From: a virus
IMG/VR virus record: IMGVR_UViG_3300047481_001175
Location: 5,209 to 69,208 of that record
DNA length: 64,000 nt
Strand: one strand, 5' to 3'
Position 1 is the stretch's first letter; each line of letters starts with the position of its first letter. The position numbers and the translations under genes were made by a program. This document shows positions 39,684 to 60,606 of the stretch, one piece after another. Under the pieces are notes generated by a model, which worked only from the letters and a program-made list of their open reading frames with translations, searched no databases and had not been told where the DNA came from.

Positions 39684-39715
39684 TGGAATAAATACCCTGT
39701 TAACGAGGAAAAGTT

Positions 39716-40684: not shown

Positions 40685-41448
40685 AAGTTGGAATTATAGG
40701 CTACGGTTGGATAGGAAAAGCAACAAAAAAATTATTTCCTGATGCACAAATCTACGATAAATTCATTCCAGAATACAACAAGCCTTTAGAAAATTGCGAT
40801 ATTGCTTTCTTAGCTGTGCCTACTCCCTGGGAAGGCGGAAAGGAATTAAATTGTGATGCTGTGGAAGATGCTATTGCTAACTGTGGTTGCGACTTTATAG
40901 TTATACGTTCCGCCACCCAACCCGGATTCGCAGATAGAATGGTGGCAAAATATAATAAACGAATTGTAGTTCAACCTGAATATTTAGGAGAAACTCCAAA
41001 CCACCCGTTCCTACAAATGGATTCTAGACAGTTTATGGTTATAGGTGGTGCTCCTGCAGATAGAAGAACAGTTATAGAATGTTATCAAAAGGCATACAAT
41101 GCTAATGTAAGAATAAGACAAGTTACAAGGTATGAAGCTGAGATTATTAAATTCAGTGAAAATCGTGCTATCTTTTATAAAGTAATTCAATGTCAAGAAC
41201 TATACGACGCCTGCGAAGCTGCTGGTGTTGATTATTATACCATCAGAGAAGCGGTATACGGCGACGATCCTCGTATGAATTTGTGGTGGACATTCGTATT
41301 TCCTGATAATAGAGGTGCAAATAGTAAATGTATACCAAAAGATGTTTATGCTTGGTGTGCTTGGGTAGAAAGTCTAGGATTAGATCCCAAGGCAACTAAA
41401 TCATTATTAGCATACAACGAAGATTTAATTAAAAAGAATAAAGTATGA
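40681..41448 (+). CDS. Nucleotide-sugar dehydrogenase (UDP-Glc/GDP-Man DH family), lacking the C-terminal domain
   Basis: GIIGYGWIG, AVPTP, IRS, PEYL, AEIIK..N, DPR and KCIPKD motifs. Confidence 0.8.
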   Translation: MKVGIIGYGWIGKATKKLFPDAQIYDKFIPEYNKPLENCDIAFLAVPTPWEGGKELNCDAVEDAIANCGCDFIVIRSATQPGFADRMVAKYNKRIVVQPEYLGETPNHPFLQMDSRQFMVIGGAPADRRTVIECYQKAYNANVRIRQVTRYEAEIIKFSENRAIFYKVIQCQELYDACEAAGVDYYTIREAVYGDDPRMNLWWTFVFPDNRGANSKCIPKDVYAWCAWVESLGLDPKATKSLLAYNEDLIKKNKV

Positions 41449-42023
41449 ATCCCTGGGAACAAACAGAAAATTTCGAAGGTGATGTAAAAGTTTATTATGA
41501 TAATCTGTTAGATCATTTTAAAAAATATAAAAACAAATTATTTGTAGAATCAGGAACCTTTTTAGGTAACGGTTTGAAGTGTGCGTTAGATGCAGGATTT
41601 GAAAAATGCTATACGATAGAAATACATCCGCACCTATACGAAAAAGCACAACAAAGATTTGAAAATGAAATCAAAGAATCTAAAGTAGTGTCATATCTTG
41701 GAGATTCAGAAAAATTACTTCCGATGGTTGTTAGGGATCTTACTGCGCCAACTACATTCTGGTTAGATGCACATATTAGTTCGCAATATGGAAAAAAGTT
41801 GGCCAAAAATTGTCCTATCATAGAAGAATTAGAAACCATTGGATCTCATCATATTAAAACACATACGTTACTGATTGACGACTTAAACTGTTTTGGAAGA
41901 CCAGCACACGATAGAATTACATTAGATCAAGTAAAACATAAAATCCTTGAAATAAATCCTAACTATAAATTTGAATTATTAGATGCTGCTCGTCCTCAAA
42001 ATATTCTAGCAGCCTACATATGA
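41445..42023 (+). CDS. Methyltransferase-like protein
   Basis: FVESGT..G, GDS, FWLDAH and LIDD motifs. Confidence 0.65.
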   Translation: MNPWEQTENFEGDVKVYYDNLLDHFKKYKNKLFVESGTFLGNGLKCALDAGFEKCYTIEIHPHLYEKAQQRFENEIKESKVVSYLGDSEKLLPMVVRDLTAPTTFWLDAHISSQYGKKLAKNCPIIEELETIGSHHIKTHTLLIDDLNCFGRPAHDRITLDQVKHKILEINPNYKFELLDAARPQNILAAYI

Positions 42024-42733
42024 GTGTGATCAATATAGTTACTTTTAAATGGAAAAAACCATCAACGGGTTATAAATTAAAAAACCCTGTAGAATATTCT
42101 GCCGAACATGTAAATTCGTTATATAAAGCAGTCACTAGAAATACTACCTTACCCTTTAAATTTACGTGTGTTACAGACGATGCTTCTGGTATCGATAAAG
42201 AAATTAATACCATACATTTATGGGACAAGTACAAAAGTCTAGGGGGTTGCTACAATAGACTTTATATTTTTAGCGAAGAAATAAAAGACATTTTAGGCGA
42301 AAGATTTATTTGTATAGATTTAGATTGTGTTATCGTAGATAATATTGATTCTATTCTTCAACGTAACGAAGAGTTTGTAATTAATAAATTTATAAGCAAA
42401 GGTGGACACGGTCAAATTTATAATGGCGGATTAATTTTAATCACGGCTGGTTCTAGAAAAAAAGTTTGGGATGATTTTGAACCAGCCCAATCACTGACTC
42501 TGTTAGATAGACATAGAAATGAACAAAATTTAGTAGGATCAGACCAGGCCTGGATACAAGTTGTACTAGGCAATAATGAATCACTGTTTACAGAAGCAGA
42601 CGGAGTCTATGATTACAATTTTTTGCCTGATAGAAAATTGCCTTCAAACGCAAAAATAATTTTCTTTCCCGGAAAAGTAGATCCTTCACAAGAAAAAAAT
42701 AAGAACGAATGGGTAGCCAAACATTGGGGTTAA
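42020..42733 (+). CDS. GT-A glycosyltransferase
   Basis: FTCVTDD, CIDLDCVI, YNGG, SDQAW and FFPG motifs. Confidence 0.75.
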   Translation: MSVINIVTFKWKKPSTGYKLKNPVEYSAEHVNSLYKAVTRNTTLPFKFTCVTDDASGIDKEINTIHLWDKYKSLGGCYNRLYIFSEEIKDILGERFICIDLDCVIVDNIDSILQRNEEFVINKFISKGGHGQIYNGGLILITAGSRKKVWDDFEPAQSLTLLDRHRNEQNLVGSDQAWIQVVLGNNESLFTEADGVYDYNFLPDRKLPSNAKIIFFPGKVDPSQEKNKNEWVAKHWG

Positions 42734-42734
42734 T

Positions 42735-43988
42735 ATGGGATTAGAAACAAATTATTTAAAATTTATAAACAGTGTAATCGGTCAAGCAAGTGGAAAACAA
42801 ATGCTTGAGCTTGGAAATCAATCTGTCAATCATAGTAAAAGACCAGAAAAAACAGGCAAAGAATATTTTACTAATAATGGGTTTGATCACATTTCGGTAG
42901 ACAGAAATGGTTTAGATGGCTCCGTAAAAAAAGATTTAAGAAATTTATCTGAATTTAGAGAGTATGTGGATTTTTTTGATATTGTTACTAATTGTGGAGT
43001 AACTGAACACGTAGAACCCATCGCTAGTCAGTATACTGTGTTTAGAATAATTCATGATAGTCTTAAGGTAGGAGGAATCGCTTTTCATATATTGCCTGAC
43101 TCCGACGAAGTAGAAAATGATCGATGGGGCCCTCACTGTAGATTTTGGTACAATGAACGTTTTTTCAAAGAGTTGTGTGTTTTAAATAATTATGAACTTT
43201 TAAAAATTGATAAAATTGATAGTTTAATTGCAGTAGCATATAAAAAAATTTCTCCAGTAAAATTTACAGACGATATAGAGTCTTTTCAAAAAAATATTGT
43301 TGTTATAGGACATAATAAACCATTGTTACACGAAGCGGTATATCCTAATACAATGGTTACTAGAGGAAAAGTTTCCGAGCTTAATAATTGTCTTTATAAA
43401 ACGATTACAGAAGGAGTTATTGGAGATTATGTAGAATGTGGAACCTATAGAGGCGGACTATCTGCATTAATGTTAGATACGATTCTTTATCATAAATTAG
43501 ATAAAAAATTATGGGTATATGATACATTTCAAGGTATGTCGGAACCCAGCGAACTTGATATTAGTAATAAAAATGAAATAGCAAAATCAACGTTTGAAGC
43601 CTCAAAAAATCAATCAACAGGATATGCAGATTGGTGTAAAGCAACTATAGATATTGTTCAGTCTACATTAAGTATAGTCAGCCATGAGTATGAAAAGTAT
43701 GCTCATTTGATAATAGGTAAAGTTGAAGATACTTTAAAATACGAAACTAATATACCAAAGAAAATTTCTTTAATGAGATTAGATACTGATTGGTACGAAT
43801 CGACAAAGATAGAATTAGAAAAATTCTATCACTTATTGTCAGTAAACGGAATTATTATTATTGACGATTATAGATTATGGCAGGGACAAAAACTTGCCGT
43901 AGATGAATTTTTTGATAAATTAGATAAAGATTCATATCAGTTTGTCGACGGCGACGACGGATCCCTTATTATAACAAAGTTGAAATAA
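42735..43988 (+). CDS. Two-domain methyltransferase: class I MTase plus TylF/MycF-type sugar O-methyltransferase
   Basis: N-terminal LELG...TEHV; C-terminal GDYVECGTYRGG, YDTFQGM, LDTDWYEST, IDDY. Confidence 0.85.
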   Translation: MGLETNYLKFINSVIGQASGKQMLELGNQSVNHSKRPEKTGKEYFTNNGFDHISVDRNGLDGSVKKDLRNLSEFREYVDFFDIVTNCGVTEHVEPIASQYTVFRIIHDSLKVGGIAFHILPDSDEVENDRWGPHCRFWYNERFFKELCVLNNYELLKIDKIDSLIAVAYKKISPVKFTDDIESFQKNIVVIGHNKPLLHEAVYPNTMVTRGKVSELNNCLYKTITEGVIGDYVECGTYRGGLSALMLDTILYHKLDKKLWVYDTFQGMSEPSELDISNKNEIAKSTFEASKNQSTGYADWCKATIDIVQSTLSIVSHEYEKYAHLIIGKVEDTLKYETNIPKKISLMRLDTDWYESTKIELEKFYHLLSVNGIIIIDDYRLWQGQKLAVDEFFDKLDKDSYQFVDGDDGSLIITKLK

Positions 43989-43990
43989 AA

Positions 43991-44572
43991 ATGGCAAAAA
44001 AGAAAAAATATACAGAAGCACTCGATCCAACCAAACCTCATCTAGGAGGTAATTTTATAGAAGTCAATCCAAGTACCTACTGTCCGTCAGTTTGGTCTTA
44101 TATTATTAAAAAATATAATATCCAATCCGTTATGGACGTTGGTTCTGGTAGAGGTCACGCTGCAAAATGGTTTTCGGATCAAGGAATCAAAACCACTGCG
44201 GTTGATGGTTTAGAAGATAATATTAAAAATGCTGTGTATCCGTCAATACTCTGTGACCTAACAGAAGGATCATATACAACTGCTGTAGATTTAGTTAACT
44301 GTATAGAAGTTGTTGAACATATTGAGGAAAAATATATCAATAACTTGTTAGATACAATTTGTTCTGGTCGATATCTTTTTATGACACACGGTCTTCCGGG
44401 ACAAGAAGGTCATCATCACGTAAATTGTCAACCAACAGAATATTGGTTAAAACATCTTGCAGACAGAGGATTCAAAGAATTATCAGACGATTCTAGAGAA
44501 TTACAAAGAATAGCTTCTTCAACTAAAGCGCATCATATCAAAGATACGGGAATGTTGTTTGTAAAGGTCTAA
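43991..44572 (+). CDS. Class I SAM methyltransferase
   Basis: MDVGSGRG, EVVEHI and GHHHVNCQ motifs. Confidence 0.8.
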   Translation: MAKKKKYTEALDPTKPHLGGNFIEVNPSTYCPSVWSYIIKKYNIQSVMDVGSGRGHAAKWFSDQGIKTTAVDGLEDNIKNAVYPSILCDLTEGSYTTAVDLVNCIEVVEHIEEKYINNLLDTICSGRYLFMTHGLPGQEGHHHVNCQPTEYWLKHLADRGFKELSDDSRELQRIASSTKAHHIKDTGMLFVKV

Positions 44573-44573
44573 T

Positions 44574-45890
44574 ATGTGTGGATTCGGCGTAACATCTAAA
44601 TCTGGAATATCTACAGTTAACAAATTCTGTCAACGAAGAGGGCCGGACCTTACCAATACTAAAACTATAAACGGCATTGAATTCTTACATAATCTTTTAC
44701 ACATCACAGGTGAGGTAACTCCTCAACCTTTTGTTAAAGGTGATATAGCCTGTACGTTTAACGGCGAAATTTATAATTACAAAGCATTTGGAACATATCG
44801 CAGTGACGGTGAATGTCTGATTGATCTTTATCTGTCGCAGGGTGACGAATTTATTAAATCACTCGACGGCGAGTTTGCAATTTGCTTAGTGGATTTTAAA
44901 AATAATAAAGTCATCATTGCCACTGATACTTTTGCTTGTAAACCGTTATGGTACGAATTTAATAGATCTGAATTCTGCGCTGCTTCATATAATAGCCAAC
45001 TGCAGGGATTAGGATTCAACCACGGTAAAAAACTAAAAGGTAATACTACAGAAATTTATAATCTGCGTACAGGTGAAAAAATTTCACAGTACACAAATCG
45101 ACAGTTTGACATAAATCAATTTAAAACATCGTTCGATGGATGGATCGAAGCTTTTACTGCTAGTATTAAAAAGAGAACAGCGAATACCACACATCGGATG
45201 TTTTGTGGTATGAGTTCTGGTTATGACAGTGGTGCAATTGCTTGCGAATTACAGAAACAAAATGCAAATTTCAAAGCTTACACTATCACAAACAATGAGA
45301 ATCCCGAAATTTTAAGTGCAAGATTACAAAGAATTAAAACTAACGAAGCTTTTTCTTTGTCCTCAGAAGAATTTCAGAAATGGAAGCAAGAATTAAATTC
45401 TAATTGCGAAAATTTTAATTATAACGGTTATGATATCAAAGGTGATCAAGCATCAATGGGATTATCAGCAATTTGTAACCGCGCTAGATCAGATAATAGA
45501 AGAATCTATTTTTCAGGGCAAGGCGCGGACGAAATTATCAGTGACTATGGATTCGGTGGTAGAAAAATTTACAAACATAGCGGATTTGGCGGAATGTTTC
45601 CAGAAGACTTGAACGGTTTTTGGCCATGGCATAGCTTTTATGATGGCACACAAGTTCAGTATCTTAACAAAGAAGAATACGTTGCCGGACATTTTGGTAT
45701 AGAAACACGTTATCCTTTTCTAGATAATAATCTAGTACAAGAATTTTTATGGTTGTCTCCGAAATTAAAAAATAGCAAATATAAAAGTTGTTTAGATGAA
45801 TATCTTAAAGTAAACGGCTTTCCTTACGAAAGCGGAGAAAAAAGAGGATTTCATGTAACTGAAAAAGGCGGAAAGAGCAAACGAGTATGA
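44574..45890 (+). CDS. Asparagine synthetase (glutamine-hydrolysing)-like amidotransferase
   Basis: N-terminal MCG (Ntn nucleophile), RGPD, NGEIYN, SSGYDS, SGQGADE and RYPFLD motifs. Confidence 0.9.
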   Translation: MCGFGVTSKSGISTVNKFCQRRGPDLTNTKTINGIEFLHNLLHITGEVTPQPFVKGDIACTFNGEIYNYKAFGTYRSDGECLIDLYLSQGDEFIKSLDGEFAICLVDFKNNKVIIATDTFACKPLWYEFNRSEFCAASYNSQLQGLGFNHGKKLKGNTTEIYNLRTGEKISQYTNRQFDINQFKTSFDGWIEAFTASIKKRTANTTHRMFCGMSSGYDSGAIACELQKQNANFKAYTITNNENPEILSARLQRIKTNEAFSLSSEEFQKWKQELNSNCENFNYNGYDIKGDQASMGLSAICNRARSDNRRIYFSGQGADEIISDYGFGGRKIYKHSGFGGMFPEDLNGFWPWHSFYDGTQVQYLNKEEYVAGHFGIETRYPFLDNNLVQEFLWLSPKLKNSKYKSCLDEYLKVNGFPYESGEKRGFHVTEKGGKSKRV

Positions 45891-46537
45891 GAAACGATAT
45901 TACAGTTGTTATAGCTGGTGATTCAAATTTTAAACCTTATGTTGAACAAGGTATACGATGGACGGAGAAATTAGGTTACCCTATCTTGGCTTATGATCTA
46001 GGAAATTTAGGATTCGGGAAGTCATTTACTGGAAGATTTAGCGACGAAGCAAATGCTAAAATTCCCTGTAAACCTCATATTATAGCTGATGCTCTTGAAT
46101 TAATTAAGGATGGAGAATATCTAGTTTGGTTAGATGCAGATGCTTTAATATATCAAAATATCGATGAGATAGCTCAAGACTACGATATCGGAGTTACTGT
46201 AAGGGCTCCGAAAGCAGTAGAACATCAACTGCCTATCAATGCCGGAATCGTATTCATAAGAAAAACTGCTGCTGCCAAAGATTTCATAGAAAAATGGAAA
46301 GAATTATCTGATCAAGGTATCAGTGATCAGCCCCCTTTAAATTATCTTTGCAAAGTCAACACTCAAGATAGAGATAAAACAGTGATAAGAGACGGAGTTA
46401 AGATAAAAGTTTTTAAGTGTGAAGTTTATAACAATTTTTATAAACAAGGTAAAAATGCCGACAAGGTAAGACCTGTTGGTGTAAAAATTGTTCATTACAA
46501 AAGTAAATTAAGACATCTATACCCTCTTGGAAAATGA
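45887..46537 (+). CDS. Nucleotide-diphospho-sugar transferase (GT-A)
   Basis: KP, VWLDAD, INAG and SDQ motifs. Confidence 0.75.
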   Translation: MRNDITVVIAGDSNFKPYVEQGIRWTEKLGYPILAYDLGNLGFGKSFTGRFSDEANAKIPCKPHIIADALELIKDGEYLVWLDADALIYQNIDEIAQDYDIGVTVRAPKAVEHQLPINAGIVFIRKTAAAKDFIEKWKELSDQGISDQPPLNYLCKVNTQDRDKTVIRDGVKIKVFKCEVYNNFYKQGKNADKVRPVGVKIVHYKSKLRHLYPLGK

Positions 46538-46538
46538 T

Positions 46539-47372
46539 ATGAAAAAAGTTTTAATCACAGGTAATTCTGGATACATAGGATCACATCTTACAAAAATTTT
46601 AAAAACAGACAACACCTATCAACTATACGGACTAGATAAGGATGTTCCAAAAATCGAGATTGAGAATTTCGTAATAGAAGACATTAGAAATTCGGGCGGA
46701 TGGATCTACGAAGATATCGAGTTCGATTGTGTAATCCATTTAGCGGCAGAAGTAGCCGTTGGTAGAAGTGTGTTAAATCCTACATTGTATTATCTTACAA
46801 ACACCTTAGGTACGCTAAATGTTCTTAGAAATCTAAAATTTAAAAGATTTGTTCATGCTAGTACAGGGTCTGCTGGACCTATGAATAATCCGTATGGTAT
46901 CAGTAAACGGGGCGCAGAAGATGTAGTAAGACAATTCTGCACCGAAAATAATATACCTTATACAACTTTTAGATTTTATAATGTAACAGGCACAGACGGA
47001 ATCGATCCCACTAACATAGATGGATTAATGTGGAATCTAATGAACGCTCAAAAGACAGGAACATTTAATTTATTTGGAGATGATTATAACACCGAGGACG
47101 GATCGGCAGTAAGAGACTATACACACGTTAATGAAATATGTTATAGTGTTATTAAAGGAATAGAACATTCATCTAATCAAATAGAAAATCTCGGACACGG
47201 TGTAGGAACCACTGTAAAGCAGATGGTAGAGATTTACAAACGTGTAAACAATTGTGATTTTACCGTAAATATTTGTCCACGAAGATCTGGCGATTTAGAA
47301 AGAAGTGTATTAGATAATCCTTCTAAATTTATGCAGAAACTATATACGATGGATGACTTACTAAAGGTATAA
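46539..47372 (+). CDS. galE: UDP-glucose 4-epimerase-like NAD-dependent epimerase
   Basis: TGNSGYIGSH, HLAA, YGISK, RFYNV, DG..VRDYTHV and RRSGD motifs. Confidence 0.85.
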   Translation: MKKVLITGNSGYIGSHLTKILKTDNTYQLYGLDKDVPKIEIENFVIEDIRNSGGWIYEDIEFDCVIHLAAEVAVGRSVLNPTLYYLTNTLGTLNVLRNLKFKRFVHASTGSAGPMNNPYGISKRGAEDVVRQFCTENNIPYTTFRFYNVTGTDGIDPTNIDGLMWNLMNAQKTGTFNLFGDDYNTEDGSAVRDYTHVNEICYSVIKGIEHSSNQIENLGHGVGTTVKQMVEIYKRVNNCDFTVNICPRRSGDLERSVLDNPSKFMQKLYTMDDLLKV

Positions 47373-47373
47373 T

Positions 47374-47640
47374 ATGGGAACATTAACTCCTGGAGCAACC
47401 TACATTTATGAAAGAGTCGGCGGTACGGTCTATGCTAGAGAATTCGGAGCCGACCCAAAAGATAGATTTATTATTGGTCAAGATTATGATGAATATCTCA
47501 CATCTTTTGCAGATCAATACTTTTTAGAAAATGATTGGAAAGATATAATAAAAGCATCCAGAGCGAATCCGGCCTTGCAAAAAGCATTAGAAGGTGTTAA
47601 AATATTATATCACTTGAGTAAAAAAGATGGGACAGAATAA
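47374..47640 (+). CDS. Hypothetical protein
   Basis: 88-aa ORF; its 3' end contains TTGCAA-17-TAAAAT. Confidence 0.6.
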   Translation: MGTLTPGATYIYERVGGTVYAREFGADPKDRFIIGQDYDEYLTSFADQYFLENDWKDIIKASRANPALQKALEGVKILYHLSKKDGTE

Positions 47641-48136
47641 ACACGTAGACCTTTTCAAAGATATGATTCCCGCAGTTGACATGGGAGTCAAAGAGCTTTG
47701 GGATGCGGCTACTGAAGATGGCCGAAAAGAAATCAAAGGCGATCTTTGGAATCTTAATAGATATATTAGCAATGTTTCAGTAACTGCTAATCCATATGTT
47801 CAGGTAAAAAGACCAACCAGAGAAGAAAAAGAGCATTTTCTTTTAACAGTCAACGAGTACTACAACAAAAATTGGAATGAAATATCTAAGCATCCTAAAT
47901 TACAATGGATGAGCTTATGTGTTTGCAGTAATGAAAAAAAGCAAACATACTTTCATGAGTGGTTGCCTCTCAAGAAAGAAAAAAATAAAAAAGAAGAATT
48001 TTTAGCACAACTTTTTCCTAATATGAAAAGGTCCGACATTGAAACACTTGCAATTACAACAACAGACAAAGAAATTAAAAAATACTGCGAGGACCTTGGT
48101 TGGGATAAGAAAACAATCAATGGAATTAAGCTATAA
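47627..48136 (+). CDS. Probable clamp-loader small subunit (T4 gp62-like)
   Basis: LNRYISN...VNE...HPKLQW...FHEWL...FP pattern; replication gene context. Confidence 0.55.
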   Translation: MGQNKHVDLFKDMIPAVDMGVKELWDAATEDGRKEIKGDLWNLNRYISNVSVTANPYVQVKRPTREEKEHFLLTVNEYYNKNWNEISKHPKLQWMSLCVCSNEKKQTYFHEWLPLKKEKNKKEEFLAQLFPNMKRSDIETLAITTTDKEIKKYCEDLGWDKKTINGIKL

Positions 48137-48803
48137 GTGTGAATATTGTTCTAAAGATTTTGCCAAAGAAAAAACATTGGCGGTGCACATTTGTGAACAA
48201 AAACGTCGTCATTTAAGTAAAAATGAAAAACATGTTCAAGCAGGATTGTTAACCTATCAAAGATTTTACGATATCACACAAAAAGGTAAAACTAAAAAAA
48301 CATTCGACGATTTTGCCTCTAGTCCTTATTACACTGCCTTTATAAAGTTTGGTAGTTTTTTAGTAAACACTGCACCAATTAATCCAGAAAGATTTATCGA
48401 CTTCGTAATTAAAAGCGGAGTTAAGTTAGATCACTGGTGTCGAGATGAACTGTACGAAACCTATATATCCGATCTGATAAAAACAGAACCTTCTGAAAGT
48501 GCGGTCCAGAGGTCAATAAAAACTATGATGGATTGGGCAGACAAAAATAATTCAGTATGGGAACACTATTTTCAGTACGTGAATTTGAACAGAGCAACAC
48601 ACGATATAAAAGAAGGATTAATCAGTCCTTGGCTGGTGTTAAATACTAGGTCTGGTAAAGAAATGCTTAAAAAAATGAACGACGAGCAATTGGAAATTGT
48701 ATCACAAATAATAGATCCTACATTTTGGGTTAGAAAATTTAAAGCATTACCAGCAGATATGGAACTTGTGAAAGATATCGTCAAGGAGGCGAAAATATTA
48801 TAA
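48120..48803 (+). CDS. Hypothetical protein with N-terminal zinc finger
   Basis: YKCEYCSKDF......L..H.C motif. Confidence 0.6.
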   Translation: MELSYKCEYCSKDFAKEKTLAVHICEQKRRHLSKNEKHVQAGLLTYQRFYDITQKGKTKKTFDDFASSPYYTAFIKFGSFLVNTAPINPERFIDFVIKSGVKLDHWCRDELYETYISDLIKTEPSESAVQRSIKTMMDWADKNNSVWEHYFQYVNLNRATHDIKEGLISPWLVLNTRSGKEMLKKMNDEQLEIVSQIIDPTFWVRKFKALPADMELVKDIVKEAKIL

Positions 48804-49027
48804 TGCCTAAACGTAAACCAGAACCCGAAATCATTGAAGAAGATTTAAAGGATAACGAAGAGTTCATAAGCAGAGACGATATAGATATAGAAGTAAGATT
48901 AACAGAAGATAATACTGTAATGGTACAATTTTCTGGATTTGACGACGACGAAGATGCAGAGGAATATGCACAGTTCCTAGCCGATACTTTACCATTATTA
49001 TTATTTGAAAGTACAAGGTTACAATAA
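48803..49027 (+). CDS. Small acidic hypothetical protein
   Basis: 74-aa coupled ORF, very D/E-rich. Confidence 0.55.
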   Translation: MPKRKPEPEIIEEDLKDNEEFISRDDIDIEVRLTEDNTVMVQFSGFDDDEDAEEYAQFLADTLPLLLFESTRLQ

Positions 49028-49605
49028 TGCCAGATATTGACATAGATTTTATAGATAGAGAACAGGCATTGTCCTTGTTCAAAACTATACCAGCAAGCAG
49101 ACTAGATAATAATAAACTTGTAAAACATAATACAGGAGTATACTTTCATCCTGTTCCGATTGCTGCCGAAAAAAATATTTGTGCCATTCCTTATGAAGAT
49201 GCTGAAGATAACGGGTTCTTTAAGATCGATTTTTTAAATGTAGGAATATACAAAGGTGTCCGTAATGAAGAACATCTTGTACAATTAATGAATACGGAGC
49301 CGCTATGGGATCTTCTAGAACAAGACGAGTTCGTCAACTTACTCTTTCACGTAAACGGGCATGGTTCTTTATTGCAACAAATGAAACCCAGGACTGTAGA
49401 GCAGTTGGCAGCAATACTAGCGATAATACGCCCAGCGAAGAGATACTTAGTTGGCGAGAGTTGGTCGAAAGTCTTGAGCGAGGTTTGGCTAAAACCAGAA
49501 AACGGTAATTATTACTTCAAAAAGAGTCACGCAACTGCCTATGCAATAGCAATAATAGTTCAAATGAATTTAATCTGCGAACAAATAAGTTATGGATTTT
49601 CTTAA
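49027..49605 (+). CDS. Miniature DNA polymerase III alpha (DnaE-like, family C) catalytic core
   Basis: PDIDIDF, KHNTGVY, KIDFL, IIRP and FKKSHATAY motifs in 192 aa. Confidence 0.8.
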   Translation: MPDIDIDFIDREQALSLFKTIPASRLDNNKLVKHNTGVYFHPVPIAAEKNICAIPYEDAEDNGFFKIDFLNVGIYKGVRNEEHLVQLMNTEPLWDLLEQDEFVNLLFHVNGHGSLLQQMKPRTVEQLAAILAIIRPAKRYLVGESWSKVLSEVWLKPENGNYYFKKSHATAYAIAIIVQMNLICEQISYGFS

Positions 49606-50080
49606 TCATTATACAAAGTTAAATAAATCAAATTTATTGATCAGTTATGTCAGTAATCATCTGATAGACAAACTATATCAAATTAAATCTAATTTGACAA
49701 ATTACGATTATGAAACTCCCGATCAAGTAATCACAAAAAATTGTTATTTGTCAAAAAATCAAATAACAAAGTTAGACTGGGAATCAAAAAAAGAAATTGC
49801 AGGTCCAAATTTTCATTATGGGTCTGTGCATCATTTGCACATCTTAGAATTTCCTAAAAACGGAATCTTAGATTATCATCATCATCATAATTTTGAATAT
49901 TATTCTTATGTCATATATATGGACGACATAGGTGGGACAGAATTTTTATTTGATGATACCACATTTCTCGTTCCTAGTGAAAAAGGTAAAATTGTTTGGT
50001 TTCCAAGTGAAATTATGCACAGAGCAATCACGAACGGATTGCCTAGAATAGTAGCAGCTGGCGGAATTATTAAAAAGTAA
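49592..50080 (+). CDS. 2OG-Fe(II) oxygenase
   Basis: HxH..YSYVIY..GGTEF, G..VWFPS..HR and terminal R motifs. Confidence 0.7.
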   Translation: MDFLNHYTKLNKSNLLISYVSNHLIDKLYQIKSNLTNYDYETPDQVITKNCYLSKNQITKLDWESKKEIAGPNFHYGSVHHLHILEFPKNGILDYHHHHNFEYYSYVIYMDDIGGTEFLFDDTTFLVPSEKGKIVWFPSEIMHRAITNGLPRIVAAGGIIKK

Positions 50081-50084
50081 AAAT

Positions 50085-50453
50085 TTAAGCTTTTCGAATC
50101 AATGTTATTGATTTTCTTTTAATTCTTTTAACAATAATATCATTAAGACTAGTACACGGACCTAATAGAATTTTAACGTCTTTTGTACTGACATTCTTAA
50201 TAGCGTAACGAAATACCCCAATCTCTCGGTGAAGAAAGATATTAATGGGGATTTGTCTATTACTTTCCCACCACCACGCCTCTCCTAGTTCTAAAAATCT
50301 GGATTTTTCTTCGTCGCTTCGTATTGATGTATAATCGTAGAAACTAGTGATCTGTTGATCCTGATTGATAATAACGCCCACGTACTCTTGTGTTACGTGT
50401 GTTAATACACTGATAAATGGAAAATTTTCTTGTAAGTTTTCTGTGATTCTCAT
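50085..50453 (-). CDS. Hypothetical protein
   Basis: 122-aa ORF with FPFIS and WWWESNR.IPINIF segments. Confidence 0.6.
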   Translation of the reverse strand: MRITENLQENFPFISVLTHVTQEYVGVIINQDQQITSFYDYTSIRSDEEKSRFLELGEAWWWESNRQIPINIFLHREIGVFRYAIKNVSTKDVKILLGPCTSLNDIIVKRIKRKSITLIRKA

Positions 50454-50483
50454 AGATAAATATGCATAAAGGTCCGCTAAGGT

Positions 50484-51560
50484 ATGCAACTTAACTCAGT
50501 TTATTTATATCCAAACAAAGTTGATGTATTCACAAATCTCGGCGCCTGGAAAACAGAGAGGTATCGCAGAGTGTATAATAGAAATTTAAAAATATATAGA
50601 AGTGTAGATAACAGGATCGATTTCCAGGTAAGAAATTCTGACGAAAAAGCAACTAGTATTGAAAATTATTATATCGTTTTTAAATTAGTATCTGTTGATA
50701 CCCAAGAGCTAATTTTAGAACAAGACTGCACAGTACAATCTGCGGCTACAGGCAAAGTATATGTTACATTAACGGAAACTCAAGTAAGAGATTTAGATTT
50801 AGGATTTTATAGCTATTCTCTTACACAAGAGTCTAGAACATATATTGATACCACAAATTATACAGTTTCATCAAAATCGCCGCTGTATGTAGATGCACAG
50901 TACGAAGTATCTGGACTGATCGAAGTAAACGGTGACTTAAATGGAAATCTATTATCTAGTACTGTAGTTAATAAATTTGATTTTGTAAATCCTGCCACTA
51001 CAGGTTATACAGATCCTTCATACTATGTCAGCAGTATAATAAATTCCAACCCGGAAACAACAACCGGAAATTCATTGCATACATTTCAGTTGTATATGAA
51101 TAATTATACAGGAACTGTAACAGTCCAAGGAAGCCTAAGCGAAGGCGGCGTTCCTCATGTTTGGTCAGATGTATCGGTAAAGAATTATAATGAATCTAAT
51201 TTAGAATATATCAATGTAATAGGAAAATGGAATTGGTTAAGAATAAAACATCAACCGACAAGCCCTAATACGATAGCTAGTTTTACTATACAACAGACTA
51301 TTCTAGGAAATTATATTGTTAATATTGGAAATCGAGGCAAGGCTTATTCAATAGGTCAGGTATTGACTATTCTTGGATCTAATTTAGGAGGAGAATCTCC
51401 TGCCAATGATCTTAATATCACTGTTACTGCTACCAATTCGTTAGGCGGCATAACTGGAATTACATATGCTGGAGTAAGTTACAATGGCGTTAGGACTTAC
51501 ACGCTATCTCCAAATCAAAATATTAATTCCGGAACGCTTGACAAAATACTTTATAGATAG
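50484..51560 (+). CDS. Virion structural protein (baseplate upper-domain-like)
   Basis: Beta-rich; GKVYVTLTE...LDLGFYSY Ig-like pattern; carries a GGESPAND module shared with the 1743-aa protein. Confidence 0.5.
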   Translation: MQLNSVYLYPNKVDVFTNLGAWKTERYRRVYNRNLKIYRSVDNRIDFQVRNSDEKATSIENYYIVFKLVSVDTQELILEQDCTVQSAATGKVYVTLTETQVRDLDLGFYSYSLTQESRTYIDTTNYTVSSKSPLYVDAQYEVSGLIEVNGDLNGNLLSSTVVNKFDFVNPATTGYTDPSYYVSSIINSNPETTTGNSLHTFQLYMNNYTGTVTVQGSLSEGGVPHVWSDVSVKNYNESNLEYINVIGKWNWLRIKHQPTSPNTIASFTIQQTILGNYIVNIGNRGKAYSIGQVLTILGSNLGGESPANDLNITVTATNSLGGITGITYAGVSYNGVRTYTLSPNQNINSGTLDKILYR

Positions 51561-51566
51561 TACAAT
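51538..51566 (+). promoter_or_regulatory. Sigma70-type promoter for primase-helicase
   Basis: TTGACA-17 bp-TACAAT; ATG 6 nt downstream. Confidence 0.7.
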
Positions 51567-51572
51567 TAATCT

Positions 51573-52601
51573 ATGACTATGGTCGTAGATAAATTTCGTA
51601 CACTGCTCCCTCCTCGAGCCAAACAAAGCCCCAGCGGTTGGACATCATTCAATGCACCCTGTTGCCAGCATCGCGGCCATAGTCCAGATACTCGTAAACG
51701 GGGAGGAATTCGATTTGACGGCAACGGCATAGTCTATAACTGTTTCAACTGCAAGTTTTCCACAGGATGGCAACCCGGTTCACCGTTTGGCGAAAAGATG
51801 AAGAGTTTGAGTCGCTGGTTAGGTGCAGGCGAAGATGATATTAAAACTATGGTGTTCGAAGCTCTTAAAACCGAAGCCGACGAGTTTGAATCGATCGAAC
51901 ATCAGCCTAAAGTAGAATTTGAAGACAAACCACTTCCAGAACACGCGATGAGTTTAATGGATTGGAGCAACATTGTCGAAGGCGAAATAGAAGAAAAGAT
52001 AGGGCCTGACTTTATTGAAGTTTTAAGGTACTTGATGTCAAGGGGTTATGATAATCCGTTTGATTATGATTTTTATTGGAGTCCTACTCCGGGCTACATA
52101 GACAGGGTCATTGTTCCTTTCCGTTGGCAAGGACGTATAGTTGGCAACACTGCTAGAAAAATCACAGACGGTAAACCAAAATACTTATCAGATCAACATT
52201 CACATTTTGTTTTCAATTTTGATCAACAGATAGAAGATCAAAAGTATATATTTGTGTGCGAAGGGCCGTTTGATGCATTGTCAATTAATGGTGTAGCTCT
52301 GCTAACTAATGATATCGCAGATCAACAAGCTAGAATCATTAACAGTCTAGGTGCAGAGGTTATAGTTGTTCCTGACCAAGACGAAGCAGGCCTACAGTTA
52401 ATAAACAAAGCTATACATTATAATTGGTCAGTAGCTTTTCCTACCTGGGACAACGATGTTAAAGATTGTGCCGATGCTGTTAAAAAATACGGCAAACTAT
52501 TTACTGTAGTAGACCTTATTAAAACAGCACAACAGGGAGAAATAAAAATAACGATGTCTATGAATTCATTAAAAAAGAAGTTATACTTAAATTATGATTA
52601 A
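51573..52601 (+). CDS. DNA primase
   Basis: Zn-binding PCC...YNCFNC; TOPRIM VCEGPFDA, PDQD..G and KD..D motifs. Confidence 0.88.
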   Translation: MTMVVDKFRTLLPPRAKQSPSGWTSFNAPCCQHRGHSPDTRKRGGIRFDGNGIVYNCFNCKFSTGWQPGSPFGEKMKSLSRWLGAGEDDIKTMVFEALKTEADEFESIEHQPKVEFEDKPLPEHAMSLMDWSNIVEGEIEEKIGPDFIEVLRYLMSRGYDNPFDYDFYWSPTPGYIDRVIVPFRWQGRIVGNTARKITDGKPKYLSDQHSHFVFNFDQQIEDQKYIFVCEGPFDALSINGVALLTNDIADQQARIINSLGAEVIVVPDQDEAGLQLINKAIHYNWSVAFPTWDNDVKDCADAVKKYGKLFTVVDLIKTAQQGEIKITMSMNSLKKKLYLNYD

Positions 52602-54039
52602 AGATTACGGATACGAAGTACAAAAATTATATCTCGAACTTATGCTGGCAGATGCTGAAGTATTTGTTCGTTGCCAGGGAATTTTCGATCACACATTGTT
52701 TGAAAGAAAATTGCAAGATGCTGCAGAATTTATAAATGTCTATGCCAAAGAATATTCTGTGATGCCAGACTTTGACATGGTCAATGCAAGTTGTAGAACT
52801 GATCTTAAAAAACCAGAGGATATTAAAGATGGTCATAAAGATTGGCTAATGGACGAGTTTGAAAACTTTACTCGACACAAAGCTCTAGAACGTGCGATTA
52901 TTGAATCAGCAGATCTTTTAGAAAAGAAAGATTACGGTCAGGTAGAATCAAAGATCAAAGAAGCAGTACAGATATCTCTGACCAAAGATCTAGGCACCGA
53001 TTACTTTGAAGATCCTAGAGCCAGATTGATGCGGATCAAAGACAAGAATGGTCAGATCTCTACAGGTTGGCCTAGTCTTGATCGTAGACTGTTTGGTGGT
53101 ATGAACAGAGGCGAACTCAATATCTTCGCCGGCGGATCAGGTGCAGGTAAATCTTTGTTCTTGGCCAATCTAGGTGTTAACTGGTGTTTGCAAGGACTTA
53201 ATGTTTTGTATCTAACATTAGAACTTTCGGAAGACCTAGTAGCAATGCGTATTGATGCAATGACCACAGGAATTTCAACTAAAGAGATTTTTAAGGATCT
53301 AGAAAATGTTGAAATGAAAGTTCGTGTTATCGGTAAAAAAGCAGGCAAGTTACAGATCAAATATATGCCTTCAGGAAAGACTGCTAATGATCTTAGAGCA
53401 TATATGAAAGAATTTGAGATTAAGACAGGTTCTAAGATCGATGTGCTGTTAGTAGATTACTTAGACTTACTGATGCCCGCCAGTCGTAAGATTTCAGCAG
53501 AAAACTTGTTTATCAAGGACAAATATGTTTCTGAAGAGTTGAGAAATCTATCTATGGAAAAACAAGTTATACTAGTAACGGCAGCACAGTTAAATCGTGG
53601 GGCTGTAGAAGAAGTAGAATTTGATCACAGTCATATTTCGGGCGGTCTTTCAAAGATTCAAACAGCAGATAACGTATTTGGTATCTTTACTAGTCGTGCT
53701 ATGCGAGAACGTGGACGCTATCAGATACAGTTAATGAAAACTCGTTCTAGCTCGGGAGTAGGACAGAAAGTAGATCTTGAATTTAATCTCGAAACATTGA
53801 AGATCAGCGATTTACCTGAAGAAGAACAGGAAAGTAACAATGGCGCTAACAGGGGCGCAAGTAGTATTATAGATTCAATCAAACGTAAAACAGAAGTGCA
53901 AAAAGTAGACCAAGAAACAGGTGAAATTAATCCCACCCAAGGCGCTAGTTTAGGCAAAGTTCGGGCTAACGTAGAATCAACAAAACTACGAGAGATCTTG
54001 AATAGCATGGGTAGTGATGATGAAGACGCACCGTTTTGA
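52594..54039 (+). CDS. Replicative DNA helicase (DnaB/T4 gp41-like)
   Basis: STGWPSLD, GGSGAGKS, LELSE, VDYLDL, AQLNR and MKTR motifs. Confidence 0.92.
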   Translation: MIKDYGYEVQKLYLELMLADAEVFVRCQGIFDHTLFERKLQDAAEFINVYAKEYSVMPDFDMVNASCRTDLKKPEDIKDGHKDWLMDEFENFTRHKALERAIIESADLLEKKDYGQVESKIKEAVQISLTKDLGTDYFEDPRARLMRIKDKNGQISTGWPSLDRRLFGGMNRGELNIFAGGSGAGKSLFLANLGVNWCLQGLNVLYLTLELSEDLVAMRIDAMTTGISTKEIFKDLENVEMKVRVIGKKAGKLQIKYMPSGKTANDLRAYMKEFEIKTGSKIDVLLVDYLDLLMPASRKISAENLFIKDKYVSEELRNLSMEKQVILVTAAQLNRGAVEEVEFDHSHISGGLSKIQTADNVFGIFTSRAMRERGRYQIQLMKTRSSSGVGQKVDLEFNLETLKISDLPEEEQESNNGANRGASSIIDSIKRKTEVQKVDQETGEINPTQGASLGKVRANVESTKLREILNSMGSDDEDAPF

Positions 54040-54619: not shown

Positions 54620-55333
54620 ATGAGATTACGACAGCTCGATGAACAACTAGATATCGTTACTGTAAATCGACGTTTAAATCCTAAGATATGGGATCGCGAT
54701 GATTTAAGGCCAGAAGTCAGGGATAAACTGATAGAAATCGCGTCTGCATTTGAAGAATTCATAGGAGTTGATCTTGATATTGTTGATTATACCATCACAG
54801 GATCTAATGCCAATTACACCTGGACAGAATACTCAGATTTGGATCTACATCTTATTATTCCAGGAACACCTTCGGACGAACAGCGTGAATTATTCAATGC
54901 TAAAAAGAGTCTATGGAGCGAGCAACACGATATCAGCATTCGCGGACTGCCTGTAGAATGTTATGTTCAAGGACAAGACGAACCACATCACTCCACAGGT
55001 GTATATAGTCTAACTGATCAAAAATGGTTGGTAGAACCAAAGAAAGTCAAACCTGATCTTGACGACAGCGCCATCGAAGCTAAAAAAGACAGTATACTAG
55101 CTCAGATACAACAAGCCCTGCTCAGCAAAGATCTAGATAAATTACGAGCTATCAAAGATAAAATAACACAGATGCGTAAAGCGGGGTTAACTCGTGCCGG
55201 TGAATGGTCAGTGGAGAATCTGGTATTTAAGATCCTGCGTAATCTAGGATTAATCGACCAGATCACAGAAAAAATCCGTGAGCTGGAAGATCAACAACTT
55301 AGTTTAGAACAGCAGAATAATCTGTTAGATTAA
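54620..55333 (+). CDS. Pol-beta superfamily nucleotidyltransferase
   Basis: TGSNANY....SDLDLH (GS..DxD) plus PVECYV third acidic residue. Confidence 0.7.
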   Translation: MRLRQLDEQLDIVTVNRRLNPKIWDRDDLRPEVRDKLIEIASAFEEFIGVDLDIVDYTITGSNANYTWTEYSDLDLHLIIPGTPSDEQRELFNAKKSLWSEQHDISIRGLPVECYVQGQDEPHHSTGVYSLTDQKWLVEPKKVKPDLDDSAIEAKKDSILAQIQQALLSKDLDKLRAIKDKITQMRKAGLTRAGEWSVENLVFKILRNLGLIDQITEKIRELEDQQLSLEQQNNLLD

Positions 55334-55893
55334 GGCAACTTTACGTGCAGGGTATATCTTTTCTGCACATGATCACCATTTAGACAAGAAACCACAGCGA
55401 AATCGTTTTGTTGTTGCTGTATGGATTTCCTTCTAAAGTCCATTATAATCACAGTGTCTTGATCGCTGTGCCTACGTATTAGATCGCTGTAGGTATTGAA
55501 CGGATAATGAAATCCGCAGCTGATCCAACTGCAGATCAAATCGAATTTTATATCTTGAGGAATCACAGGATTTGCAGCATCTACGAATGTATACTGCATA
55601 CCCTGTGATTGGTAATGCTGTTCTAGATCTTGTCTGGTGCGATAAAACTTAAAATCGTCAACAGCACCGTACTTGGCTTTTCTAGGTCTATTTTTAGTAG
55701 TTTCAAAATCACCATCCATCAACCATAGTTCGCTGCCGTGATTTTTTTGAAATAATTCGCTGACTTTGGCATAGCCTGCACCGATGTCTAGGATACGTCT
55801 AGGTGGCTGTTTGAGATAGGCCGTGACTATATCATAGACATCTTCTCGGCTTTTAATATAAGCTGGGCTGAGCCAGCCGTAGTCGTCAATCAT
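55330..55893 (-). CDS. Class I SAM methyltransferase
   Basis: ILDIGAG, LMDG and FDLICSWISCGFHYP motifs. Confidence 0.75.
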   Translation of the reverse strand: MIDDYGWLSPAYIKSREDVYDIVTAYLKQPPRRILDIGAGYAKVSELFQKNHGSELWLMDGDFETTKNRPRKAKYGAVDDFKFYRTRQDLEQHYQSQGMQYTFVDAANPVIPQDIKFDLICSWISCGFHYPFNTYSDLIRRHSDQDTVIIMDFRRKSIQQQQNDFAVVSCLNGDHVQKRYTLHVKLP

Positions 55894-56572
55894 TCCTATT
55901 TCCAAAAAGCTGTAACAGGCTAAGGAAGATATTGATAAAGTTGAGATAGAGACTCAGCGCACCCCAAACTTCCATTTTTCCATCGTTTTCATAGCTGACC
56001 ATTTCACGTAGACGCTGTGTGTCGTAGGCTGTCAGTCCTAGAAACACCAGGACAGCGATCGCTGAAATTACCATCTGCATCACGGTTGAACCAATAAACA
56101 CATTGATCACTGAAGCGATGATGATAGCGATCAGTCCCACGAATAAGAACTGACCAAAGCTGGTCAGATCACGTTTGGTGAAATAACCATAAAAACTCAT
56201 AACACCAAACAGCACGGCCGCGCTCATAAACGCTGACACGATACTGCCCATATTGAAGACAACAAATATAGTGGCGAAACTCAGACCCATCAAGGCAGCA
56301 AATCCGTGTAGGAAAATCTGCAGACTGCCCTTGCTCATACGGTCATAGGCCAAGCTGCCCCCTAGGATAGCCACCAATGGCGCAAAGATCACCAGCCATT
56401 TCATCCATCCAGTAAAGAAAAAAGCCATCAGCGCCGGCGATGCGCTGACCAAAACGCTGACTATCATACTGGTCAGCACGGCCAACATCATATGACCGTA
56501 GATACGGCCCATGGCTGAATTGATCGCACTGGCCGATCTAGAAATACCTGTGTGCATCACTGTGTCAAACAT
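55886..56572 (-). CDS. Bax inhibitor-1 / YccA family membrane protein
   Basis: About seven hydrophobic segments; YGYFTKRDLT, GLTAYDTQ and ALSLYLNFINIF motifs. Confidence 0.9.
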   Translation of the reverse strand: MFDTVMHTGISRSASAINSAMGRIYGHMMLAVLTSMIVSVLVSASPALMAFFFTGWMKWLVIFAPLVAILGGSLAYDRMSKGSLQIFLHGFAALMGLSFATIFVVFNMGSIVSAFMSAAVLFGVMSFYGYFTKRDLTSFGQFLFVGLIAIIIASVINVFIGSTVMQMVISAIAVLVFLGLTAYDTQRLREMVSYENDGKMEVWGALSLYLNFINIFLSLLQLFGNRND

Positions 56573-56601
56573 TTGGACTCCTTGTAGTTGATTGTATAAC
56601 A

Positions 56602-56630
56602 ATTATACAGTATAATATTTACTTGGTCAA
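56602..56630 (-). promoter_or_regulatory. Sigma70-type promoter for the BI-1/YccA gene
   Basis: Minus strand TTGACC-17 bp-TATAAT followed by SD AAGGAG. Confidence 0.7.
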
Positions 56631-56697
56631 CAAAAGAACCCAGGTAATTCAGGGTTTTTTCCAAAGTTCAATAAATACGCATATAATAGGATTCAAA

Positions 56698-57132
56698 ATG
56701 CTCTACGTAATACAAGACCTCCGAGATGATCTACTGGCACTGATCGAAGACGATCCAGTACGCCCAGAATTAGCCGCTGAGTTTAGGGTCAATGAAAACT
56801 CACGGATCTTCGTGCTCCGAGACGATCAAGGCAGTGCTCTGGCAGTGACCTGTGTGAAGTTTCTCAACGAGATTCCTGAAAGTGTGGAAGATCTCGCTGA
56901 TCTAGCGGTAAATTCCAATACCGCTGTGTTCTATACCATTTGGAGCTATGCGCAGGGTGCAGGACGTAGATTGATCCAAGAAGCCAAACAGTACATCGCA
57001 GAGCATCGGCCCGAAGTCAAGACCTATGTGACACTGAGTCCTAAAACAGATATGGCTCGTAGATTCCACCTGAAAAATGGTGCGGAAGTCTACAGAGAAA
57101 ATCCCGACACTGTGAACTATCTCTACAGATAG
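56698..57132 (+). CDS. GNAT-fold protein resembling the malonyl-CoA decarboxylase catalytic domain
   Basis: AVFYTIWS..GAGRRLI...TYVTLSP...RFHLKNGA. Confidence 0.55.
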   Translation: MLYVIQDLRDDLLALIEDDPVRPELAAEFRVNENSRIFVLRDDQGSALAVTCVKFLNEIPESVEDLADLAVNSNTAVFYTIWSYAQGAGRRLIQEAKQYIAEHRPEVKTYVTLSPKTDMARRFHLKNGAEVYRENPDTVNYLYR

Positions 57133-57339
57133 TTATCTACGCTGTGAGGGAGTGTATCTCTCCAAGAAACCCTGCCATTGATCACCGGTGCGCTCAGTGA
57201 GACCCTGGGCTAATTGATCTGCACGACTCTGTGCTAGCGTGCGCTGATGCAGTTGGAATCTAGCCCCTGTGAGATCCTGGCTGACCTGGGTTTCTCCTGT
57301 GACAGAGTTACGAGCTTTGGCTATGAGATATTGTTGCAT
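57133..57339 (-). CDS. Hypothetical protein
   Basis: 68 aa; start 5 nt after TAAATA. Confidence 0.55.
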   Translation of the reverse strand: MQQYLIAKARNSVTGETQVSQDLTGARFQLHQRTLAQSRADQLAQGLTERTGDQWQGFLERYTPSQRR

Positions 57340-57349
57340 ATAGATATTT

Positions 57350-57838
57350 ATGCTAATCGAACAGAGTGCGCACGATCCTGCTCTGTTCAGGATAACGCAT
57401 AAGCCATATGTCCGCATACCAAGGATTACTAAACAGCAGCCACCAATCCACAGGCACGGCCGCATTATAGACTTCAGTGTTGACCCAGCTGCGAGGCCAG
57501 TAATGCACCGAATCGCTCCACGAGATCAACAACTGCTGCTGTGCAGAGTGGAACTGCTCAAGGTACACGATCAACATCAAGTATTTACTGATTTCCATAA
57601 ATATCACTGTATGATCACTGTAGAAGCTCAGCTGTCAGGTCAGGCGGTTTTATCGGGCCCCCAAGGCAGGATATTGATCCGCGATCTAGTGTGGTTGCCC
57701 TTGGATCGGCAGGACATCCTGGAGATCTATTATTGGCACAGTTGGTGGGTCACACAGGGAGTGTATCACTGCTGTTTTTCAATTCCTGGTAAGGTTTCTC
57801 TGTTGAAAGAACAAGAGCCAGCTGGGCAGATGAGCTAG
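57350..57838 (+). CDS. Hypothetical protein (may start at 57611 instead)
   Basis: Open frame; internal TAAATA at 57598-57603 precedes the ATG at 57611. Confidence 0.4.
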   Translation: MLIEQSAHDPALFRITHKPYVRIPRITKQQPPIHRHGRIIDFSVDPAARPVMHRIAPRDQQLLLCRVELLKVHDQHQVFTDFHKYHCMITVEAQLSGQAVLSGPQGRILIRDLVWLPLDRQDILEIYYWHSWWVTQGVYHCCFSIPGKVSLLKEQEPAGQMS

Positions 57839-57967
57839 GCTCATAGACAGCCACATCAGAGGCATTTCCCAAGATGTGCCGCAGATGCTGGGATGATATA
57901 GGCTGTAGACCAAACCTGCCAAGAACAAGGGTGTGGGCAACAAAGTGAGTAGTGTGTAGTAACGCAT
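57779..57967 (-). CDS. Small membrane protein
   Basis: Two hydrophobic segments; start 4 nt after TAAATA. Confidence 0.5.
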   Translation of the reverse strand: MRYYTLLTLLPTPLFLAGLVYSLYHPSICGTSWEMPLMWLSMSLAHLPSWLLFFQQRNLTRN

Positions 57968-58062
57968 CAAGTATTTAAGTAAAAAAAATTATAGCTGCGA
58001 AGCCCGCGCGATTTTTCAGCGCGAAGCGCCAGCGGTAAGCGGTTTTTTTAGGAGCGACGGCA

Positions 58063-59549: not shown

Positions 59550-59617
59550 TGCTGCTCCTAGTTATCCAGTGTATTTGTGTAGTATATGATCGTTCTGAAC
59601 GATCATGCTAATTCCAA

Positions 59618-60605: not shown

Positions 60606-60606
60606 G

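Follow-up and report, generated by a model that had tools for sequence, protein, structure and literature searches.

How small can a C-family DNA polymerase be? The question is raised by a 192-residue open reading frame (ORF) in a 64,000-nucleotide stretch of viral DNA, bases 5209–69208 of the 69,208-bp IMG/VR record IMGVR_UViG_3300047481_001175, which we refer to throughout as the window. A first-pass annotation, made from the letters of the window, had described this ORF as a minimal DnaE-type polymerase core that might be active as it stands. We find it close to certain that the ORF encodes the C-terminal unit of a split minimal DNA polymerase III (Pol III) alpha of the kind carried by group 2.2 jumbo phages, and we call it the C-half; the N-terminal unit (N-half) is a separate, distant gene in related phages. 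Our overall reading, that this is the C-half of a split mini-polymerase auxiliary to a family-B replicase, is in our judgment probable. For the annotation of the window it brings three corrections: the gene encodes half an enzyme, the contig does not include the partner, and the oxygenase-like and glycan neighbors are accessory. More broadly, the family illustrates how few parts a C-family polymerase may need (a palm in two pieces and a finger stub), and it abounds in giant phages from the environment.

The record is 19% complete by CheckV and is hence a fragment of a ~360-kb genome. Annotation of its ORFs by PHROG and Pfam scans indicates a contractile-tail phage: the record carries genes for the tail sheath, the tail tube, and the large terminase, for a gp32-like single-stranded-DNA-binding protein, UvsX, and UvsY, for helicases of the UvsW and DnaB types, and for a DnaG-type primase, together with two sugar/glycan clusters. 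The sequencing runs in which the environmental clade of the window is best represented are labelled freshwater or lake water, and the C-half is at most 51% identical to any homologue from an isolate phage.

Homology of the C-Half to DnaE

The ORF starts with an ATG that overlaps the TAA stop of an upstream 74-residue ORF by one base. Its motifs stand in the order first reported, PDIDIDF (residues 2–8), HNTGV (34–38), KIDFL (66–70), RP (135–136), and FKKSHATAY (163–171), and the presence and order of these DnaE motifs are far beyond chance. The protein matches phrog_11778 ("DNA polymerase") with an E-value of 4.1e-65, residues 3–186 lying on profile positions 8–194 of 197. A single-sequence phmmer search against PDB sequences returned three collinear pieces at an E-value of 0.47, which is not significant. 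The sole Pfam match to the C-half was to the finger domain PF17657, below threshold (15.6 bits, the cut-off being 22), and the NCBIfam DnaE model TIGR00594 scored 16.4 bits against a cut-off of 434. PF07733 had no Pfam match anywhere on the 69-kb record. A profile built from 85 homologues, drawn from HMMER cluster representatives and 29%–61% identical to the window protein, matched solely Pol III alpha chains among PDB sequences (Escherichia coli 2hnh, E = 4.2e-6; Taq 2hpi, 1.8e-5; Mycobacterium tuberculosis 5lew, 1.1e-4), the next match having an E-value of 0.49. On the profile alignment, residues ~52–137 correspond to E. coli alpha 539–641 and residues ~148–177 to 739–769. Counting along this alignment, K66 falls on E. 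coli K553 and D68 on D555, and we take D401, D403, and D555 to be the catalytic residues of E. coli alpha.

The structural comparison agrees. The AlphaFold2 model of the C-half has a mean predicted local distance difference test score (pLDDT) of 96.6, and the best 18 rows of a Foldseek search with it are all C-family polymerases. VIA-align places 188 of the 192 residues on Taq alpha 461–841 (Z 9.6, root-mean-square deviation [rmsd] 3.8), 184 on E. coli alpha 400–784 (Z 8.7), and 185 on PolC 971–1296 (Z 9.4); the next fold after the C-family polymerases reaches only Z 3.1. The C-half thus spans 385 residues of E. coli alpha using about half that number, and the match stops at residue 784. Some 85 residues are absent after the DxDxD strand by the sequence alignments (phmmer and profile), a stretch that in E. 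coli alpha is presumably the thumb. The earlier statement that PHP, clamp-binding, and OB domains are lacking holds: PF02811 has no match on the 69-kb record, and the structural match ends before the later domains. The adjacent ORFs have no polymerase-related Pfam or PHROG match.

Compared with bacterial DnaE and PolC (2hnh, 2hpi, 3e0d, 5lew, 3f2b), the C-half has homologous palm strands, the aspartate triad, the lysine, and the finger motifs. The bacterial chains differ in exceeding 900 residues and in carrying the PHP, thumb, clamp-binding, and OB parts, which the 192-residue C-half lacks along with the tau-binding parts. The C-half moreover falls below the curated family cut-offs, has the first part of its palm on another polypeptide, and occurs in genomes whose replicase belongs to family B.

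A Distant Partner and Natural Fusions

According to Iyer et al. 2021 (Viruses 13:63, PMC7824862), group 2.2 jumbo phages have a "phage-specific minimal version" of Pol III alpha made by two distant genes, one for an N-terminal NTP-binding protein and one for a C-terminal Mg2+- and template-binding protein, alongside a family-B polymerase; the authors propose this minimal version as a model of the ancestral enzyme. The C-unit of these phages (PHROG 11778) is of the same family, length, and motif content as the window C-half, which is a fresh example of this family described from sequence in 2021. Attai et al. 2018 give a Pol III alpha subunit for Atu_ph07 as annotation only. Homologues of the C-half are found in Phosso, Atu_ph07, PA5oct, XacN1, GAP32, RaK2, CBB, and 121Q-type phages.

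We located the N-half in relatives of the window phage. In 4 of 4 isolates (Phosso, Atu_ph07, PA5oct, RaK2), positions ~12–98 of the Pfam DNA_pol3_alpha domain match, above cut-off, a short ORF lying 34–224 kb from the C-half. The N-half is also present in five of ten large IMG/VR relatives, the five without it being 31%–79% complete. The two halves are ~180 kb apart in the sole complete large relative (364.5 kb) and ~174 kb apart in a relative whose C-half is 77% identical to that of the window. A full-length DnaE at this locus was looked for in relatives and not found: the PF07733 matches, in eight of ten records searched, are all short N-half ORFs. A single N-half query found 79 phage records, compared with 96 for the C-half, and the host genera were the same.

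N-halves are 155–177 residues long, with a GVGRGSS motif that is invariant in 46 sequences. An N-half profile aligns to E. coli alpha 322–392 (E = 0.028), and the NCBIfam DnaE models match the same stretch. The nucleotide-binding part of the palm is a separate protein, and the notion that the 192-residue ORF is a complete catalytic core does not stand. In the sequences listed, N-halves end in EFLR or EFLK, just past the palm helix, with zero to four extra residues, and the C-half begins MPDIDIDF. In E. coli numbering the C-half starts a few residues after the N-half ends, which amounts to a clean cut inside the palm. We considered and ruled out intein-mediated joining, as there are no intein residues at the N-half end or at the C-half start (M-P-D-I-D); the halves must hence associate without splicing. 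The cyanobacterial intein-split DnaE (Ssp/Npu) is alike in being a C-family polymerase from two distant genes and differs in that the phage halves carry no intein pieces.

HMMER searches over the representatives also revealed two single-chain natural fusions of both halves, P0212 (375 residues) and P0261 (336 residues). A quick tree does not place these as sisters: P0212 clusters with P0153 and P0206 (Shimodaira–Hasegawa-like approximate likelihood ratio support 97), and P0261 falls elsewhere on a long branch. A word search for longer fused forms found none at E 1e-5, which is weak evidence. The first-pass suggestion that the ORF is a subunit of a split enzyme is thus borne out by the N-half gene of the relatives, and its placing of the partner among the ORFs just upstream is not, as these have no similarity to DnaE. 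In both environmental relatives and isolates, the N-half is followed by a conserved ORF of ~114–130 residues, in some cases with another of ~120 residues, and the N-half loci L094, L091, L176, L007, and L010 share a conserved neighborhood of their own.

Spread and Selection

A word-indexed search that scored 8,000 candidates yielded at least 7,985 C-half clusters at 90% identity, and most of the proteins among the matches listed are 192 residues long. HMMER on representatives of 50%-identity clusters gave 400 at E ≤ 1e-3. All 96 phage records with a C-half homologue are jumbo phages, those among the matches listed all being of the group 2.2 type, and some are annotated as "DnaE-like DNA polymerase III alpha". 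In prokaryote genomes, 599 pattern matches included no relative of the C-half by tblastn.

The catalytic aspartates are retained, as had been proposed: D3, D5, and D68 are invariant in the 85 homologues, as are K66 and P136, and conservation is 90% or higher at D7, H34, G37, R135, K165, and H168. For codon analyses we used 63 unique coding sequences from 80 related IMG/VR loci and the window (L050 was dropped). Synonymous sites are saturated among them, with a mean proportion of synonymous differences (pS) of 0.77 and of nonsynonymous differences (pN) of 0.20. The comparison of substitution rates advised at first pass was run on the 62 pairs with pS < 0.6, and gave a median ratio of nonsynonymous to synonymous rates (dN/dS) of 0.11. 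By these measures the C-half is under selection as an enzyme.

This conservation leaves hardly any credit for a decaying, functionless remnant of a captured host dnaE, which a small piece of a large host-type gene scoring far under the NCBIfam DnaE cut-offs might otherwise suggest: length and sequence are held across the clusters, dN/dS is low, the catalytic residues do not vary, and synteny is kept from Agrobacterium to Klebsiella phages.

What the Two Halves May Do

On the split-polymerase reading, the C-half provides the palm strands with the metal-binding D3, D5, and D68, plus K66, and, on the template side, a cut-down finger module containing R135-P136, K165, and H168. Missing from it are the PHP domain, the thumb, some half of the fingers, the OB region, the regions that bind the clamp and tau, and the palm segment with the GS motif. 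The N-half (~160 residues) would hold the triphosphate and the C-half the two metals. Pairing non-covalently, with no intein, the two would form a pol-beta-fold nucleotidyltransferase of ~350 residues that extends DNA 3' ends on a template, in primer extension, gap filling, or restart over short patches, and that acts beside a T4-type family-B replicase. Lacking thumb, exonuclease, and clamp contact, the enzyme should be distributive, and the fixed place of the C-half in a module running from UvsW to primase and DnaB points to work at the primosome or on the lagging strand. Non-covalent association of the halves into a ~350-residue enzyme performing templated DNA synthesis is, going by the sequences, a slightly better than even prospect. 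Most likely, the C-half forms part of a non-processive auxiliary polymerase beside the T4-type replicase; a family-B polymerase of ~890 residues was found in 5 of 5 large relatives tested.

Several points weigh against this reading. Absence of the thumb argues against firm duplex binding. Some 87 E. coli finger residues between the RP motif (639–640) and residue 739 are reduced to ~11 in the C-half, and the lost stretch is the one that we take to carry two arginines gripping the incoming deoxynucleoside triphosphate in E. coli alpha; with these gone, nucleotide binding may work differently. Neither a PHP domain nor a DnaQ-type exonuclease was found by Pfam in the five large relatives (0 of 5). 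Each of the two fusions is a singleton from a short contig (2.4 and 8 kb), and the viral and metagenome contigs searched yielded no relative. A search of the 69-kb record (~19% of the genome) for other DnaE fragments and a family-B polymerase, also advised at first pass, found neither there and both in relatives, so that for this phage the N-half and the replicase are supplied by analogy with its relatives. Finally, a search of literature listings found no family member for which evidence from biochemistry, genetics, or expression had been reported.

Loss of the thumb and of much of the fingers would also suit a two-piece nucleotidyltransferase with some other job, such as untemplated 3' tailing, synthesis of a nucleotide signal, or DNA modification. 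The pol-beta superfamily has many such enzymes, and with a complete family-B replicase always alongside, replication does not need the two-piece enzyme. We nevertheless consider this unlikely, given that the non-palm parts which have been kept are the DnaE finger module (the RP and KSH motifs), that the structural neighbors are all replicative C-family polymerases, and that the locus is a primase-helicase module, not a defence or modification cluster.

The ORFs coupled to the C-half on its upstream side had been put forward as the partners, and one could regard them either as DnaE fragments or as obligate accessory subunits. They overlap or abut and are kept beside the C-half in 77, 80, and 66 of 80 related loci, the 227-residue protein in all four isolates as well. 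This reading carries even less weight with us than another chemistry does. Tried as the N-half, the ORFs gave profile-comparison probabilities of 0.2% (169-residue ORF) and 0.6% (227/254-residue family), and they have no similarity to any part of DnaE. The 227-residue protein, for which the ORF list offers a longer TTG start at 48039, has an N-terminal zinc finger with invariant C7, C10, H23, and C25 and a helical body modelled at pLDDT 88. Its family matches only zinc fingers among PDB sequences, its model has no Foldseek match at E ≤ 0.001, and in the Atlas it falls in unnamed viral clusters only. The top VIA-align rows for the model are the helicase loaders lambda P (Z 4.2) and T4 gp59 (Z 3.7, rmsd 12.2), too weak for naming a fold, and nothing scores above them. 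Adjacency within a replication module, moreover, does not by itself show binding. Hence the upstream ORFs as DnaE fragments are contradicted, and as accessory factors they may yet have a part.

The idea that the 192-residue protein works on its own, as a minimal polymerase or nucleotidyltransferase, fares worse and appears very improbable. It has in its favor the invariant aspartates and lysine and a fold that is modelled confidently for the chain alone. The chain begins, however, at the DxDxD strand and lacks the GS-motif helix-loop, without which no active site of the pol-beta type is complete. In the relatives this element has a separate and equally conserved gene of its own, and two natural sequences have it joined to the C-half.

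Gene Neighborhood

Synteny around the C-half was counted in the 80 related IMG/VR loci, some of which are clipped by contig ends (Table 1). The gene order in relatives is UvsW, the phrog_11279 ORF, the 88-, 169-, 227-, and 74-residue ORFs, the C-half, the reverse 134-residue ORF, a structural protein, primase, and DnaB. In the four isolates, the C-half is likewise flanked by the zinc-finger ORF, the reverse ORF, the gene for the structural protein, primase, and DnaB. The window resembles the group 2.2 phages in gene order, from the zinc-finger ORF and C-half through the reverse ORF and the structural protein to primase and DnaB, and in the kind of phage, with a tail sheath and T4-type recombination and replication genes on the record.

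Table 1. Features at and around the C-half gene: window coordinates and number of related loci (of 80, some clipped by contig ends) in which each is found
Feature	Position	Strand	Loci	Remarks
UvsW-type helicase and phrog_11279 ORF	35627–37635	+	51 (UvsW); 53 (phrog_11279)	Upstream end of conserved module
Sugar-nucleotide/glycan-modification cluster (~9.5 kb)	37874–47372	+		Splits the UvsW–primase module
88-aa ORF			68	
169-aa conserved ORF, phrog_11758	47627–48136	+	77	3 of 4 isolates
227-aa protein, phrog_11058, C2H2-type zinc finger and helical body	48120–48803	+	80	4 of 4 isolates
74-aa acidic ORF, isoelectric point (pI) 4.1	48803–49027	+	66	Translationally coupled to C-half; no Pfam, PHROG, or NCBIfam family
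C-half, the Mg2+- and template-binding part of a split minimal DNA polymerase III alpha, 192 aa	49027–49605	+	80	Motifs, PHROG, profile, model
67-codon ORF nested in frame +2 of C-half gene	49305–49508	+		Candidate overprinted gene; stop-free across clade
162-aa 2-oxoglutarate (2OG)-Fe(II)-oxygenase-like ORF	49592–50080	+		Between C-half and reverse ORF; weak oxygenase/cupin-like matches
134-aa conserved ORF, phrog_11637	50085–50489	−	80	Directly downstream of C-half in all relatives; 4 of 4 isolates
Structural protein			74	
DnaG-type primase	51573–52601	+	69	Downstream end of conserved module
DnaB-type helicase	52594–54039	+	60	Downstream end of conserved module

Two features set the window copy apart from the group 2.2 arrangement, the oxygenase-like ORF inserted after the C-half and the glycan cluster upstream of it. 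The first-pass annotation had pointed to both as neighbors of the gene. The oxygenase-like ORF adjoins the C-half in 0 of the 80 related loci, and an epimerase gene, which closes the cluster, is near the C-half in eight of them; we therefore read both as lineage-specific insertions and not as functional context. The UvsW end of the module lies at a median offset of −4.2 kb from the C-half in relatives, as against −13.4 kb in the window phage. Genes of the inserted cluster include methyltransferases, epimerases, a dehydrogenase, glycosyltransferases, and an asparagine-synthase-like gene. There is a further sugar-nucleotide/glycan cluster at 27374–33224, and the two clusters together include a cytidylyltransferase-isomerase.

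Scans of 47000–51600 for promoters and terminators gave results at chance level, and there was no RNA run among the sequencing runs listed for 47300–51600. Just after DnaB, at 54620–55333 (+), lies a gene for a 237-residue protein that matches phrog_36119 (E = 1.5e-50). It also scores 20.7 bits (E = 5e-4) against the pol-beta-type NTP_transf_2, just under the cut-off of 21, and would be a second small nucleotidyltransferase-like gene.

An Overlapping Reading Frame

A separate case, of possible gene birth inside an essential-looking gene, is presented by a stop-free frame within the C-half gene (Table 1). Among the 63 coding sequences, the longest stop-free run reaches at least 60 codons in frame +2 in 53 (median 70) and in frame +1 in none (median 35). 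The frame +2 run is in the same place in the 55 ungapped 192-codon sequences and mostly ends at codons 156–159. The exact coordinates of the nested ORF in the window are open in 21 of the 63 only, most of the others ending one to three codons sooner. Codon choice avoids stops in the frame. Ahead of AA, AG, or GA, T-ending codons number 26 of 971 inside codons 93–158, compared with 718 of 1,902 outside, and 27% of the other codons inside 93–158 end in T. Synonymous shuffles gave p ≤ 0.05 in 48 of the 55 sequences. As a null from other genes of the record, the longest such run in 68 segments of 192 codons was 70 codons, compared with 79 here.

The nested ATG spans the end of the Leu93 codon and the start of the codon for the invariant Trp94, and so depends on an A as the last base of Leu93. 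The Leu93 codon ends in A in 52 of 55 sequences, compared with 51% of other Leu codons. A Shine–Dalgarno (SD)-like site with a GGA core stands 4–18 nucleotides upstream of the ATG in 50 of 55, and Glu91 is GAG in 29 of 54, compared with 28% elsewhere. An intact nested ORF of 64–67 codons runs from that ATG in 48 of the 55, and the product in the window would be basic (pI 11.1). The frame is thus open beyond chance, with a conserved position, start codon, and SD-like site.

Other observations speak against a second gene, and the counts above treat the sequences as independent. The nested ORF is interrupted or truncated in the remaining 7 of 55. Its product is 36% identical between relatives, below the 42% of the other frame, and pS is only slightly lower inside the nested region (0.52) than outside it (0.60), so that no constraint seems to act on the product at the protein level. 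The frame, stop-free in the clade of the window, is absent from the group 2.2 phages Atu_ph07, PA5oct, and RaK2. We regard it as an overprinted frame that this clade keeps open, its product being a candidate only. Taken jointly, the boldest form of our proposal is doubtful: that the ~350-residue two-gene enzyme is a working templated polymerase, the smallest of the C family, without thumb, proofreading, or clamp contact and recruited at the primosome, and that in the freshwater clade the C-half gene also encodes a basic overlapping protein of 64–67 residues.

Other Features of the Record

Toward the end of the window, at 56000–64000, the G+C fraction climbs from ~0.33–0.38 to 0.47–0.50. The genes there are many short ORFs, mainly on the minus strand and nearly without family matches. 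At 55886–56602 (−) is a gene for a 238-residue membrane protein of the Bax1-I (BI-1/YccA) family (E = 1.5e-53), an unusual cargo for a phage.

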